A stretch of DNA of 64,000 nucleotides from Escherichia phage vB_EcoM_Maryam, in the sequence record PQ799574.1, one strand, 5' to 3'. The notes below the pieces were generated by a model, which was not told where the DNA came from, did not search any database, and saw only the letters and a program-made list of their open reading frames with translations. Both the position numbers and the translations under genes were made by a program. Shown here in pieces: positions 50,942 through 64,000 of the stretch; positions within the stretch are counted from its first letter, which is position 1; every line of letters begins with the position of its first letter.

Positions 50942-51718
50942 TTATACTCTTGGACCATATATTGCTCCAACATTTTGCCACGTTGGAGAAGACCCTATAA
51001 CAGCATATCCAGAATCGCCGCCATTGTATTCAGATCCTTGACCACGAATATTACATCTACCTCCTGCGGCGCCTACCTCACCACCGCTTCCGCCATTATA
51101 GATACCGTTCACGGACCCCGATCCAGGCGCATAAAGAGTACCAGCAGTTGCGCCTGATTGCATATCAATAGATCCGCCAGGTGCACCAAACGGACGCCCA
51201 CCACCACCACCAAAGGTTAATCTCATTTGTGAAAAAGGAGAATAATACCCACCGCCACCACCGCCACCACCGGCAGCAATAGCTCCGCCATTATTAATTC
51301 TTAGTCTCCCACCAATATCGTTTTGAATACAATGACCTCCAGCTGAGCCAGGACTATTGCTACCGCCATTACCTCCACGACCATACATCGTTACGCCGTG
51401 TATATTTAACTGAACATATTCATTTGGTGTATCTCCGTACATAAAGAATAAAGGAACATCTTTAGAATATGATACTAAATCACCTGTAATATTAAACACT
51501 ATAGGTGCACTACCTGCCTCAAAACATCTATCTCGGAACCATTGACCATTGAAGTTATGGTCTGCTCCAAGCGTGTGAATTATTTCAACAGATCGACCTA
51601 TCATATTACTCATCCAAAACGGAACGCCCATTCTTAATCTTGCGGCTGCTCCTGCCATCCAATGGTCTCCAGTCTGTGCCAATGCAGAAGTTCCTATCCA
51701 CGGTCCTGCTACTGCCAT
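50942..51718 (-). CDS. 38: long tail fibre adhesin gp38, T2/T6-type with glycine-rich repeats
   Basis: 258 aa from ATG 51718 ([15 protein letters not shown]...), GGAGG SD; poly-Gly runs; ORF track starts at upstream TTG. Confidence 0.8.
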
Positions 51719-51728
51719 ATAAACCTCC

Positions 51729-51744
51729 AAGGGGCCGAAGCCCC
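51729..51744 (-). terminator. GGGGC-UUCG-GCCCC hairpin between genes 37 and 38
   Basis: Identical core to hairpin at 47947-47962. Confidence 0.45.
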
Positions 51745-51749
51745 TCTTA

Positions 51750-54700
51750 TTATTTTAACAATGATTTAACTAATGCTTTAAGTTCTTCGATTTCTGATTT
51801 AAGTTCTGCAATTTCTGCAGTATGCTCATTGATTGCAGCTGTATTTAAACCAATTACACCGTTATAGTTCAAACGAAGTAAAGCTTCGCCATCAGGGTCA
51901 CCTTCAACTAATTCTGGTAAAATAGCTTGAACTTCTTGAGCAATTAAACCGGCGTTAGGTTCCCATTTCTGATTGCCTTCTTCATCTAGGCCTCGCTTCT
52001 GCATATAAGTGTAACCGTTAATTTTGGAAAGCTTCTCAGAAGCATTTTCAAATTTAACAAGGTCTTTTTTAACACGAATATCAGAACGGACATAAACATC
52101 TCGAACAAATGTGGAATAGGCATCGCTCTGTTGGACTAAATGACCAAAAGAAATAATAGCTCTTCCTTGTTCAGTCCACAAAGCACCAGTGGTATCCCAA
52201 AGACCTTCATGGAGATGGTAAGCGGACGACCATGAAGCAATATGCATTCCATTTGCAACCATATTAATTCGCCCATCACCGCCATGAACTAATCCAGTAT
52301 CATTATCACCAATAACAAGACATGGTCCAGTCCACACCGGGTCACCACCGCCAGCTGATAATCTTGCTCCGGTTTGAACCATGTTAGGAACATACAGAAC
52401 TCCAGTGTGGTGGAATTCATAGATAGCTTGTGGGTCAGAACCGTTTTCCTGGTTACCTACACGAATAATACCTTGTGCCCAGTTATTAGTAATGCGACGC
52501 ATACCAAAATCAACGCTAGATATGTATCCTTCATTCGTAATAGCAGATTTTCCTTTAATAATAGGATAATAACTATCATTACCAACATTACCAAAATCTA
52601 CAAATATCGGAGCTTCTTGTCGCCATTGGTTTCCCCAATCGCCAGCCTGGTGCGCAGTCCATTGTGTACCGTTTATATGAAGGCGGTCTCTATTAAAATT
52701 AAATGTTCCTTGACCTTGAGGAGAAAGCGATATTTCGCCGTTATTTGTTATGTATACACCACCCTGTGTAATGTAACTGTAAAAACCTAGACCGTTGTCG
52801 CCGCCACCTTTGCCTATATACCAGTTATTTGTACCACCTACATCACTACGGATATGTGATGAAGCACCTCCGCCAGCAGTTAAAACGAGAGCATCATTGC
52901 CTGCTGATAAAGTCAATTTACCAGTCATCGTGTCGCCTTCTTTAGAAACACGAGTAGCTATTGCATCGCGAATATTTGTGGTTTCTCCCGCAGAAGTAAA
53001 CGATTTCCAAATATCTGAGAAAATATTACCATTACGAGCAATAGTAGCTTCACCGCCGCCGACTTGAACGTTATCGGGGAAATTAACTGTACCGTCTTGA
53101 TTAAAACGAGACGTATGGCCTTGTGAACCATCTTCTTTTAAATGATGTAAAACAAATGTACCCGAATTAATTTCAGTACCTAAAGACCAAACAGCTTTAC
53201 TGTTTAAAAACTTCTGTTTAACAATAGGATAATATTTACTTACTGCGTCATCATCGATTTCCTGGAAAATAGGAGCTGCTTGAACATATTGAATATCATA
53301 ACCACCAGCGCCAGCGCCGTGACCAGTAAATTTAATATATCCGTTTGCTGCGAACGTATTGTAACTTGATTGTAAATCTGGAATAGTAACTTTACCAGTA
53401 TCTAAAGCCATACTAAACGGGCGAAGTGGACCGATATCACCATGTTTACCTTCACCATAAGCAGTTGGAATAATATGAAGACTGCCTTCTGAACGTCTAA
53501 AAATAGCTCCATAATCTGCGTTCCAAATGCGAAGAGCATTCACTGCTCCAGATGAAATTTCGCCTGTTGTGTGAACTCCTCTATTTCCAGCAGTAACACC
53601 AGATGATTCAAATGAACCGTTAACGTTCATTTCTACTTCACCTGTTGTAAGTCTTTGAATATAGCTCATCCAGCTAGTTGCATCGGAAATTTCCATGACA
53701 TTTTTGCGATTACCTTCACTAGGAATAGTAAATGTATTACCCCACACGGAAATTGTCATATTATCAACTGAACTACTACCAGTTGTGTTACCTCTAAACA
53801 TCAGTGTAGAAGCATTATTTCTACCATCGATATTAACAGAACCACCAATAACGTCAATATTACCAGGAGTAACTAACAAACCGCCATGAGTATTAATGTT
53901 TGTGGTACCCTTGCCGCGGAAATAATGATGATAGTTACCGCCTTGATAATATCCTAAAAGAGTCTGACCATCTCCAAACGCGTTATTATCGTGATATGTC
54001 ACGACAGTAGCAAGAGCATAATTTTCAGTTGGAGGAGTAGTTAAATCGGTTCCGTTAGTAGAATATCCAGCTACAAATTTTCTTAGGCTAGTTGTTTCGC
54101 TAGGACTAAATAAAAACGTTTTTGTTCCATTATTAACGCTAAAATAATATCCATCTTGATGCCATTTAAATCCAGTATCATTATCTCCTAAAGCAATACT
54201 AGATTGTCCTAATATTGAATAATCTTTATTACCAGGTGTTAAACCAATAGAAATTGAGTGACTTGATTTAATTCCGCCGCTCCAAGTAAATGACCAAAGA
54301 TAGGTGTCAAGTCCATCACCTGCATACCAAGTTATTCCATCATTATCTTTAACTTCATGGAAAATACCAGAACCAACGGCATTACGCATGACACGAAGAT
54401 GATTAATAGCAGTAGTGCTTTCAGACAATGGAACATTGTCTGCCATCGAATAGATGTCATAATCACCCGTAGATTTATTATTAGTAATGACTTTGTTGGT
54501 CAGAATTTGTGGAGACGAAATAGATTTCCATGCTGATACTTCAGGTGAAGTAAATAGTCCACTGCCTGAAAATGCATAAGTGCTTTCGCTACCAGCGGCG
54601 TAGTCTTGAACCCTGATATTAAGTACTTGTGTAGTTAAACCATCATTAGCCGGGGCATAAATGATTCCGCGTTCGCGACTATTGTTATCGAAAAAACGAA

Positions 54701-55061
54701 CATGCGCTGTACCTGAACTTTTTGTAATAAGTTCTCCGCCTTCAGTCATAATCTGCCCAGCGGAAATAATATCGCGAGTTACTCGAGCAATACCAATTAA
54801 ATTAAAATTACCAGTCTGAGTGAAGACGCCATTTAAAGTATAATCGCCAGTTTGGTTATAATTGCCTGTATGAATAACATTCCCGTCAATACTACCGCCT
54901 TTAGCAAAACCCAGATCAATAATATTTCCTTGGTCATCTTTAGTAAAAAGTACACGGTCTTTTAAGTTTATAGCCAATTCACCTTCGGCTAATACTGAAG
55001 CGGCAGGACGTGCTCCTGCAGTTTTGCTTCTTTTAAATTGTATTTGTTTTAAAGTAGCCAT
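51750..55061 (-). CDS. 37: long tail fibre distal subunit gp37 with C-terminal intramolecular-chaperone-like domain
   Basis: 1103 aa; glycine-rich fibrous repeats; C-terminus SDIRVKKDL...[15 protein letters not shown]...[14 protein letters not shown]. Confidence 0.85.
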
Positions 55062-60824: not shown

Positions 60825-60886
60825 CTTGTTTACTTTAAGATTTGGATGGTATATAATAGAAATCTCACTAATTGAACGAGGTTCAT

Positions 60887-61804
60887 ATGGATTTAGAAAT
60901 GATGTTGGATGAAGATTACAAAGAAGGAATTTGCTTTATTGACTTTAGTCAAATTGCGCTTTCAACTGCTTTGGTAAACTTCCCAGATAAAGAAAAAATT
61001 AATTTATCAATGGTTCGTCATTTGATATTGAACTCAATTAAGTTTAATGTCAAAAAAGCAAAAACGCTTGGATACACTAAAATTGTACTGTGTATTGATA
61101 ACGCGAAATCTGGATACTGGCGTCGTGATTTTGCGTATTATTACAAGAAAAACCGTGGAAAAGCACGAGAAGAATCTACTTGGGACTGGGAAGGTTATTT
61201 TGAATCCAGCCATAAAGTTATAGATGAATTGAAAGCTTATATGCCATACATTGTTATGGATATTGATAAGTATGAAGCAGATGACCACATTGCTGTTCTT
61301 GTTAAAAAGTTCTCTTTAGAAGGACACAAGATTTTAATCATTTCATCGGATGGTGACTTTACTCAACTTCACAAATACCCAAATGTTAAGCAATGGTCAC
61401 CGATGCACAAGAAATGGGTTAAAATTAAAAGCGGTTCTGCTGAAATTGACTGTATGACTAAAATCCTTAAAGGCGACAAAAAGGATAACGTTGCTTCAGT
61501 TAAAGTACGATCTGACTTTTGGTTTACCAAAGTTGAAGGTGAACGAACTCCTTCAATGAAAACTTCAATCGTTGAAGCTATTGCTAATGACCGTGAGCAA
61601 GCTAAGGTGCTTCTCACAGAATCTGAATATAATCGTTATAAAGAAAATTTAGTTCTAATTGATTTTGATTATATTCCTGATAATATTGCTTCAAACATTG
61701 TGAATTACTATAATTCATATAAATTACCACCGCGTGGCAAAATTTATTCATATTTTGTAAAAGCGGGTCTTTCTAAATTAACTAATAGCATTAATGAATT
61801 TTGA
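60887..61804 (+). CDS. rnh: RNase H (5'-3' exonuclease, FEN-1 family)
   Basis: 305 aa from ATG 60887 (MDLEMMLDEDYKEG...); ORF track starts at upstream TTG. Confidence 0.9.
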   Translation: MDLEMMLDEDYKEGICFIDFSQIALSTALVNFPDKEKINLSMVRHLILNSIKFNVKKAKTLGYTKIVLCIDNAKSGYWRRDFAYYYKKNRGKAREESTWDWEGYFESSHKVIDELKAYMPYIVMDIDKYEADDHIAVLVKKFSLEGHKILIISSDGDFTQLHKYPNVKQWSPMHKKWVKIKSGSAEIDCMTKILKGDKKDNVASVKVRSDFWFTKVEGERTPSMKTSIVEAIANDREQAKVLLTESEYNRYKENLVLIDFDYIPDNIASNIVNYYNSYKLPPRGKIYSYFVKAGLSKLTNSINEF

Positions 61805-61812
61805 GGTGAATA

Positions 61813-62082
61813 ATGGCTAAAAAAGAAATGGTTGAATTTGATGAAGCTATCCATGGCGAAGATTTGGCTAAATTTATTAAAGAAGCATCTGATCATAAAC
61901 TGAAAATTTCCGGTTATAATGAACTGATTAAAGATATTCGAATTCGTGCCAAAGATGAACTTGGTGTTGATGGCAAGATGTTTAATCGTCTGTTAGCTTT
62001 GTATCATAAAGATAACCGTGATGTGTTTGAAGCTGAAACTGAAGAGGTAGTTGAACTTTATGACACAGTTTTCTCTAAATGA
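61813..62082 (+). CDS. dsbA: dsDNA-binding protein DsbA
   Basis: 89 aa; position between rnh and 33. Confidence 0.75.
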   Translation: MAKKEMVEFDEAIHGEDLAKFIKEASDHKLKISGYNELIKDIRIRAKDELGVDGKMFNRLLALYHKDNRDVFEAETEEVVELYDTVFSK

Positions 62083-62398
62083 TATTCGTCCGGTCGATGA
62101 GACCGGTCTTTCAGAAAAAGAACTTTCCCTTAAGAAAGAAAAGGATGAAATTGCAAAGCTTCTTGATCGTCAAGAAAATGGATTTATCATTGAAAAAATG
62201 GTAGAAGAGTTTGGAATGAGTTATCTTGAAGCTACGACAGCATTCTTGGAAGAAAACTCTATTCCTGAAACTCAATTTGCTAAATTTATTCCTTCGGGTA
62301 TAATTGAAAAAATTCAGTCAGAAGCTATTGACGAAAATCTTTTGCGTCCTTCTGTTGTTCGTTGTGAAAAAACTAATACATTAGATTTTCTGCTATGA
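62060..62398 (+). CDS. 33: late transcription co-activator gp33
   Basis: 112 aa from ATG 62060 (MTQFSLNDIRPVDE...). Confidence 0.85.
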   Translation: MTQFSLNDIRPVDETGLSEKELSLKKEKDEIAKLLDRQENGFIIEKMVEEFGMSYLEATTAFLEENSIPETQFAKFIPSGIIEKIQSEAIDENLLRPSVVRCEKTNTLDFLL

Positions 62399-63048
62399 TT
62401 AAACTCCGCATGCCTGCTGGTGGTGAAAGATACATTGATGGTAAATCAGTTTATAAATTATACTTAATGATAAAACAGCATATGAATGGAAAGTATGATG
62501 TTATTAAGTATAATTGGTGCATGCGGGTGTCTGATGCCGCTTATCAAAAGCGAAGGGATAAGTATTTTTTCCAGAAGTTATCAGAAAAATATAAATTAAA
62601 GGAACTTGCTTTAATCTTTATAAGCAATTTGGTTGCTAACCAAGATGCTTGGATTGGTGACATCTCTGACGCTGATGCACTTGTGTTTTATCGTGAATAT
62701 ATCGGACGCTTAAAGCAAATTAAATTTAAGTTTGAAGAAGATATTCGCAATATTTACTATTTTAGTAAAAAAGTTGAAGTTTCTGCTTTTAAAGAAATCT
62801 TTGAATATAATCCAAAGGTTCAGTCAAGTTATATTTTTAAACTTCTGCAATCGAACATAATTTCGTTTGAGACGTTTATCTTGCTTGATTCGTTTTTAAA
62901 TATAATTGATAAACATGATGAACAGACTGATAATTTAGTCTGGAATAATTATTCTATAAAGTTAAAGGCTTATAGAAAAATTTTAAATATTGATTCACAG
63001 AAAGCTAAAAGTGTTTTCATTGAAACTGTGAAATCTTGCAAGTATTGA
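62395..63048 (+). CDS. 59: helicase loader gp59
   Basis: 217 aa; position between 33 and 32. Confidence 0.85.
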   Translation: MIKLRMPAGGERYIDGKSVYKLYLMIKQHMNGKYDVIKYNWCMRVSDAAYQKRRDKYFFQKLSEKYKLKELALIFISNLVANQDAWIGDISDADALVFYREYIGRLKQIKFKFEEDIRNIYYFSKKVEVSAFKEIFEYNPKVQSSYIFKLLQSNIISFETFILLDSFLNIIDKHDEQTDNLVWNNYSIKLKAYRKILNIDSQKAKSVFIETVKSCKY

Positions 63049-63049
63049 T

Positions 63050-63682
63050 ATGAATATAGTATATTGGTTTACATTTGAAGACCGTGTCAAAAATAAGACT
63101 CCACCGTACTACTATATCGGTAGTAAATTAAATTGCTCATTTGAGAACGGAATAATATATGACTCTTCCGGAAAGGAATACTGGAGCTCATGTAAACAAA
63201 AAAGATTTTTGAATGCGCTAATGCTTCAAAAACCGAGCGTTAAAATAATTCAAATTGATGATGACTTGGATGTTATTGAAGCAGAACGAAAATACCAACT
63301 TGAAGTAAATGCCAGAGATAATCCAGACTATTTTAATCTGGTATATGCTGGTGGTGGATTTGGTGTGAGTGGTGAAACTCATCCAGCCAAAGACCCGGAA
63401 GTTAGAGAGCATATGAGATTGGCTAATTATATGAACCGTGACGATTTTAGACCTTGGAAAACATCACGAGCTAATATAGAGTCTTGGAAATTATCTCATA
63501 TTGCTTACGAGAATTATGTGTTATTATTATCCTCTAATCTGTACGGTAAAACTCCTGGATGGCGAAGAGTTAAAGGTAATATAAATATAACTGATACAAC
63601 TGCTAAATCGATGGTAAAGTATTTCAACTCAGGTTGGATACCTCTCGAAGACCCAGAGTATTGCAAATTATGCCAGCTATGA
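63050..63682 (+). CDS. SegG-like putative homing endonuclease (possible GIY-YIG)
   Basis: 210 aa; N-terminus IVYWFTF...YYYIGSK loosely fits GIY...YIG; occupies the 32.1/segG position between 59 and 32. Confidence 0.45.
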   Translation: MNIVYWFTFEDRVKNKTPPYYYIGSKLNCSFENGIIYDSSGKEYWSSCKQKRFLNALMLQKPSVKIIQIDDDLDVIEAERKYQLEVNARDNPDYFNLVYAGGGFGVSGETHPAKDPEVREHMRLANYMNRDDFRPWKTSRANIESWKLSHIAYENYVLLLSSNLYGKTPGWRRVKGNINITDTTAKSMVKYFNSGWIPLEDPEYCKLCQL

Positions 63683-63736
63683 GGTAAAGTGTCATAGCAC
63701 CAACTGTTAATTAAATTAAGTTAAAAAGGAAATAAA
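63683..63736 (+). promoter_or_regulatory. gene 32 5' leader / translational operator (A/U-rich unstructured region)
   Basis: GTGTCATAGCACCAACTGTTAATTAAATTAAGTTAAAAAGGAAATAAA immediately before gene 32 ATG. Confidence 0.5.
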
Positions 63737-64000
63737 ATGTTTAAACGTAAATCTACTGCTGAACTTGCTGCGCAAATGGCTAAACTGAATGGCAATAAAG
63801 GTTTTTCTTCTGAAGATAAAGGCGAGTGGAAACTGAAACTCGATAATGCGGGTAACGGTCAAGCAGTAATTCGTTTTCTTCCGTCTAAAAATGATGAACA
63901 AGCACCATTCGCAATTCTTGTAAATCACGGTTTCAAGAAAAATGGTAAATGGTATATTGAAACATGTTCATCTACCCATGGTGATTACGATTCTTGCCCA
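63737..64000 (+). CDS. 32: ssDNA-binding protein gp32 (5' part, truncated by window end)
   Basis: [51 protein letters not shown]... Confidence 0.95.

Follow-up and report, generated by a model that had tools for sequence, protein, structure and literature searches.

The open reading frame between genes 59 and 32 of Escherichia phage vB_EcoM_Maryam is segG of the T4 type

The open reading frame (ORF) between genes 59 and 32 of Escherichia phage vB_EcoM_Maryam (PQ799574.1) is segG of a T4-type phage (Tequatrovirus), and its product is SegG itself, a protein already well studied in T4. As a whole, the data are best explained by a free-standing GIY-YIG homing endonuclease to which the mechanism of T4 SegG carries over, and we give this reading a probability of about 0.96. 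The analysis covers a stretch of 64,000 nt, here called the window, whose features are collected in Table 1. This copy is essentially the T4 allele and offers nothing new, which makes the assignment correct but ordinary. The proper label is segG, and some database records still say hypothetical. SegG is a textbook case of “intronless homing” and of marker exclusion in T4 x T2 crosses.

In the ORF listing of the window, a single ATG-started frame of 210 residues plus stop occupies this position. The frame is real, and its N-terminal residues 3-26 read IVYWFTFEDRVKNKTPPYYYIGSK, as the initial annotation had quoted. Megablast against 50,697 phage records finds segG in 141 of them, each at no less than 80% query coverage and at least 95% identity. 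Furthermore, full-length SegG homologues with 34-64% amino-acid identity retain the reading frame and the motif residues. Together, the 141 records and these homologues argue that the ORF is not due to chance.

The gene order 34(-), rnh, dsbA, 33, 59, segG, 32 is the same in the window and in T4 (NC_000866). The TGA of gene 59 lies at 63046-63048 and the ATG of segG follows 1 nt further on, an arrangement also found in the T4 annotation. At the other end, 54 nt separate segG from the gene 32 ATG (63737). No further segG paralogue was found in the window, either by tblastn or with a GIY...YIG regular expression applied to ORFs of at least 100 aa. As for the neighbouring genes, rnh (60872..61804, +) and gene 33 (62051..62398, +) were called from upstream TTG codons, giving 310 and 115 aa. 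The ATG starts annotated in T4 and ES19 give 305 and 112 aa, so the TTG starts are an ORF-calling artefact and not a real difference.

Table 1. Features of the segG region in the window
Feature	Position	Strand	Remarks
Gene 59 (helicase loader; left flank of the insertion)	62395..63048	+	217 aa; Pfam T4_Gp59_N and T4_Gp59_C, E ~1e-53
segG-specific insert relative to T2	63047..63672	+	626 bp in place of 38 bp of T2 sequence
segG (gene 32.1) CDS	63050..63682	+	210 aa + stop; T4 SegG NP_049855.1, PHROG 7504
N-terminal GIY-YIG catalytic domain (predicted)	63050..63349	+	Residues 1-100
Candidate catalytic residues	Y5 63062-64; Y22-I23-G24 63113-21; R52 63203-05; E79 63284-86; N96 63335-37	+	
MotA-box-like middle-promoter candidate in segG	63219..63250	+	TAATGCTTCA, 12 nt, TAAAAT; pattern match
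Flexible linker	63350..63385	+	Residues 101-112; pLDDT drops to 54 (101-110), below 50 at 103-107
C-terminal all-helical domain, presumed DNA-binding/target-recognition	63386..63679	+	Residues 113-210; carries K206
T4 late-promoter consensus in segG	63580..63587	+	TATAAATA; consensus match; 150 nt upstream of gene 32 ATG
Gene 32 operator pseudoknot, 5' part	63671..63698	+	TGCC AGCTATGA GGTA AAGTG TCATAGC; overlaps the last codons and stop of segG
Gene 32 (ssDNA-binding protein), first 264 nt	63737..64000	+	T4-type sequence

The initial annotation had described a SegG-like ORF at the position of T4 segG and proposed a comparison with the T4 protein. That comparison confirms the description and shows it to be an understatement. 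At the same locus, 209 of the 210 residues match T4 SegG without gaps, and the sole change is E206K (codon 63665-63667). The protein also matches PHROG 7504, “homing endonuclease”, with an E-value of 8.5e-134. Over the 633 bp of the gene, the DNA is 100% identical to ES19 and ES21 and 99.5% identical to T4 (megablast). The T4 counterpart lies at 147909-148541 of NC_000866 and is annotated “SegG, homing endonuclease, GIY-YIG family”. Besides E206K, segG differs from the T4 gene by two silent changes, in codons 18-19. The protein sequence with K206 is found unchanged in RB3, RB5, ES19 and S1P5QW.

The likeness extends beyond the coding sequence. As in T4, the gene sits between 59 and 32, is of equal length, follows gene 59 after 1 nt and reaches into the gene 32 operator, and the flanks are near-identical. 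Aligned over 1.1 kb, from the end of gene 59 through segG to the start of gene 32, the window departs from T4 by 7 substitutions and a single 1-nt indel. The remaining genome background differs from T4, for example in the adhesin-type gp38 of the window.

T2 had been described as a phage without segG, and its sequence agrees. In T2 (AP018813), genes 59 and 32 are separated by 99 bp with no ORF between them. The identity of 98% between the window and T2 in gene 59 (BLASTN) stops at 63046 and homology restarts at 63673. Over its final 10 nt, stop included, the segG ORF lies in sequence shared with T2, namely the 5' part of the gene 32 operator pseudoknot (63671-63698). The 38 bp of T2 that segG replaces hold a TGCTTA MotA-box-like motif and the late-promoter consensus TATAAATA. 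Given these motifs, the segG insertion appears to have displaced the ancestral promoters of gene 32. Judging from sequence motifs, functional replacements for them now appear to lie inside segG.

At its 3' end, segG runs into the control region of gene 32. The final 12 nt of the ORF overlap the operator pseudoknot, whose helices in Table 1 were assigned after the T4/T2 gene 32 pseudoknot. An overlap of the pseudoknot with ORF 32.1 was described by Borjac-Natour et al. (PMC535899). Scanned with Rfam, 62300-64000 yielded nothing but chance matches below threshold; the gene 32 operator has no family in Rfam. As for transcription, the middle and late promoters of gene 32 sit inside segG (PMC2988022). 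The motifs at 63580 and 63219 are consensus matches only, and they fit this placement. The one at 63580 is the sole plus-strand occurrence of TATAAATA within 62395-63760. A sigma-70 promoter scan, whose scope does not include T4 middle and late promoters, found no excess of sites (8, compared with 7.5 +/- 2.8 in shuffled sequence).

Two differences from T4 were found in the gene 32 leader. One is an A-to-G change at 63720, inside the UUAAA-repeat operator region, and the other concerns the A-run (63733/63734) that links the Shine-Dalgarno sequence to the ATG, which has one nucleotide fewer. Both appear to occur in ES19 as well, where the segG-to-32 spacer likewise has 1 nt less than in T4. Up to nt 264 of gene 32, ES19 shows no ungapped mismatch to the window.

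The segG cassette has no dedicated intergenic region, reaching from 1 nt after the gene 59 stop to the inside of the gene 32 operator. With promoter motifs inside it and its end in a translational operator, clean loss of the cassette would probably be costly. In a rival reading, segG would be a functionally decayed or idle cassette, kept mainly because the promoters of gene 32 are embedded in it along with the 5' end of its operator pseudoknot, and not for a nuclease that still acts. The late-promoter consensus and MotA-box-like motif inside the ORF, and the pseudoknot that takes in its last 12 nt (PMC2988022, PMC535899), would be a selective reason to keep the DNA whatever the nuclease activity. 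Moreover, all copies are at least 95% identical, too alike to gauge purifying selection on the protein within the lineage. However, the ORF is intact, every motif residue is present, and the only change from a T4 enzyme of published activity is E206K, at a conservative position near the C-terminus. The homologues at 34-64% identity keep the full-length frame and an invariant Y22-I23-G24, E79 and N96, which points to selection on the protein. We therefore regard an idle cassette as very unlikely and a working endonuclease as the preferred reading.

In terms of motifs, we aligned 27 homologues with 28-64% identity to SegG. Invariant columns include Y22, I23, G24, S25, K26, E79 and N96, and Y5 is kept in at least 90% of the sequences. 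In the AlphaFold2 (AF2) model, the first two beta-strands hold the two motifs, GIY (I3-V4-Y5) in strand 2-8 and YIG (Y22-I23-G24) in strand 21-26, and E79 lies inside helix 75-85. From motif order and secondary structure, we infer that E79 and N96 correspond to the metal-binding Glu and the downstream Asn of I-TevI. The I-TevI counterparts we take to be E75 and N90, with R27 as the conserved Arg.

The putative corresponding arginine is less constant in this family. R52 opens helix 51-59 of the model, and 6 of the 27 homologues have I, D, L, Q or G in its place. Homologues lacking it may be inactive, or the clade may rely on another basic residue. Unlike R52, R12 is kept in nearly all homologues; it lies in the stretch that separates the GIY motif from the YIG motif. 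The tyrosines of the two motifs are separated by 16 intervening residues, presumably a longer spacer than in I-TevI-type domains.

The AF2 model has two domains joined by a low-confidence linker. Its N-terminal part shows the alpha/beta fold of GIY-YIG domains, and the best match is the GIY-YIG catalytic domain of I-TevI. In a Foldseek search of the PDB, I-TevI ranked first, but with a non-significant E-value of 0.9. The same search against BFVD gave 24 matches with E of 1e-3 or lower, many of them named GIY-YIG, Seg-like or NUMOD endonucleases. For SegG relatives that have the N-terminal domain alone, similarity ends at about residue 100-124. Relatives of this kind keep residues 1-100/124 and carry other C-termini, NUMOD modules among them, which shows a modular plan with domain swapping.

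Sequence profiles gave little. A profile search for the GIY-YIG domain had been suggested as a check, and it came back blank: scans of the protein against Pfam and NCBIfam returned 0 families, even at E of 10 or lower. A precomputed Pfam domain is absent in all 29 database relatives, and the SegE_GIY-YIG profile matches a single one of the 27 homologues (E 0.035). Searches of all PDB sequences with the protein (phmmer) and with the 27-sequence family profile (hmmsearch) gave chance matches and nothing relevant. Using hhalign, the family profile and full-length I-TevI did not align over their catalytic domains (probability 1.7%). We attribute the lack of a curated GIY-YIG match to limited profile sensitivity, since both the fold and the motifs are present. 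Pipelines that depend on Pfam and NCBIfam profiles alone miss SegG as a nuclease.

The initial annotation had noted a loose fit of the N-terminus to a GIY...YIG motif. The fit holds up well, with the motif residues conserved in the family and a predicted fold closest to the I-TevI domain. Membership of SegG in the GIY-YIG superfamily is supported by this motif conservation and by the modelled fold. That the IVY...YIG likeness is fortuitous, and the protein a DNA-binding or regulatory factor of a different fold, would suit a domain unrecognised by any profile database and a non-significant PDB match to I-TevI, but set against the conserved motifs and the modelled fold its chance is close to negligible.

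As a GIY-YIG protein, SegG is distant from I-TevI, the T4 td intron endonuclease (PDB 1LN0) and archetype of the GIY-YIG homing endonucleases, with 17% identity. Compared with I-TevI, its GIY-to-YIG spacer is longer, and the Arg helix is preceded by an additional beta-hairpin (residues 30-37). The SegG clade might form a distinct GIY-YIG subfamily, marked by the long spacer, the beta-hairpin before the Arg helix and an R52 that is dispensable in some members, with R12 or K26 possibly substituting. We hold this to be unlikely; if true, it would mean an active-site arrangement unlike that of I-TevI. It is mildly instructive that profile libraries overlook this GIY-YIG clade and that the putative catalytic Arg is not universal among the relatives. 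SegG is also free-standing, whereas I-TevI is intron-encoded. Endonucleases of the free-standing kind cleave at a distance of hundreds or thousands of bp from the gene that encodes them, and intron-encoded ones at most 25 bp from the insertion site (PMC2988022).

The primary study of T4 SegG is that of Liu, Belle, Shub, Belfort & Edgell (2003, J Mol Biol 334:13). The target gene of the enzyme is listed as “32” (PMC2988022, Table 1). As summarised in the papers that cite Liu et al. 2003, the T4 enzyme cleaves gene 32 of the segG-less T2, and the break is then repaired by recombination with the T4 genome, which amounts to gene conversion. In T4 x T2 crosses, the same summaries state, the gene 32 markers of T2 are excluded and segG passes to the progeny at high frequency (PMC2988022, PMC2330249, PMC535899).

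With an identity of 209/210 and an identical context, the function of T4 SegG can be transferred to the present copy, for which expression, cleavage and homing are probable by analogy. In co-infection with a segG-less relative such as T2, SegG would make a double-strand break in gene 32 of that relative, at a predicted distance of a few hundred bp from its unoccupied 59/32 junction. Resection would follow, and then repair by recombination, with the segG-carrying genome as template. The gene 32 region of the recipient would be replaced, a localized marker exclusion, and segG would often be copied along with it (“intronless homing”). The presence of segG predicts that this phage would impose its own gene 32 region on segG-less relatives in mixed infections. 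The cleavage site of T4 SegG, which we take to be ~332 bp from the insertion site, would fall at or just past the end of the window.

The sequence of gene 32 agrees with this scheme in part. Over 264 nt, the window has 2 differences from T4 and 16 from T2 (13 substitutions and a 3-nt indel). The divergence between T4 and T2 in gene 32 peaks at nt 52-63, including the 3-nt indel, and at nt 207-294, with 10 differences. Counted from the right edge of the segG insert, this latter cluster is 271-358 bp away, and the window carries T4 alleles at every one of its sites within reach (63943-63997, equal to gene 32 nt 207-261). This cluster is a plausible location of the SegG target-site polymorphism.

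Among database records, 100 match the gene 32 5' end of the window at 99% or more, and T2-like records, with a 267-nt haplotype, do so at ~94-96%. In the window, as in the segG-carrying records that were sampled, segG goes together with the T4-type 5' haplotype, and at least one record departs from this. PsgM02F (OR584013.1) has segG at 99% amino-acid identity, yet a T2-like gene 32 5' haplotype (94.4%, 267 nt), so linkage between segG and the gene 32 allele is not strict. The pattern in the sampled records, from which PsgM02F deviates, is what co-conversion with segG would produce and lends indirect support to biased inheritance.

As for the distribution of the gene, a close gene 59 is present in 518 records, and segG in 141 of these (~27%). 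These counts indicate a presence/absence polymorphism at a fixed site. More divergent SegG-like proteins occupy the same 59/32 gap in other genera, both of them much further from the window SegG than that of T4. The protein of Dhakavirus VR5 (YP_009205936.1) is 58% identical over its full length. For gp32.1 of Gaprivervirus VR7 (YP_004063938.1), the 53% identity covers residues 1-112, the catalytic domain only; its C-terminal domain is different and shorter, which implies different target recognition. Relatives of the catalytic domain are also found at other loci, for example beside gene 49 and rpbA. One record named “T4” (OL964745.1) matches at no more than 70.7% identity; the matched stretch takes in two CDS labelled “homing endonuclease”, and the record may hold a disrupted segG.

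Finally, the initial annotation had seen a mosaic in the presence of segG alongside T2-type tail-fibre genes. The architecture is indeed of that kind, with gp38 (50942..51730, -) a 262-aa adhesin type and not the T4 chaperone type. The allele is not that of T2: gp38 is T6-like, with 82% identity to gp38 of T6, 96% to that of “T4_ev151” and 42-46%, in the N-terminal half, to that of T2. Likewise, leaving aside the conserved N-terminus, gp37 (51750..55061, -, 1103 aa) has only 34% identity to its T2 counterpart. The entire stretch that runs from gp38 through segG into gene 32 is found again, at ~94-96% identity, in PE37, NBEco003, 121/2022-2B, KMB40 and others. We rejected an unusual mosaic of segG with adhesin-type tail fibres, as the same block is widespread among isolates. 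Many segG-carrying relatives also have this adhesin-type gp38 tail-fibre block, and the combination is common among sequenced Tequatroviruses.
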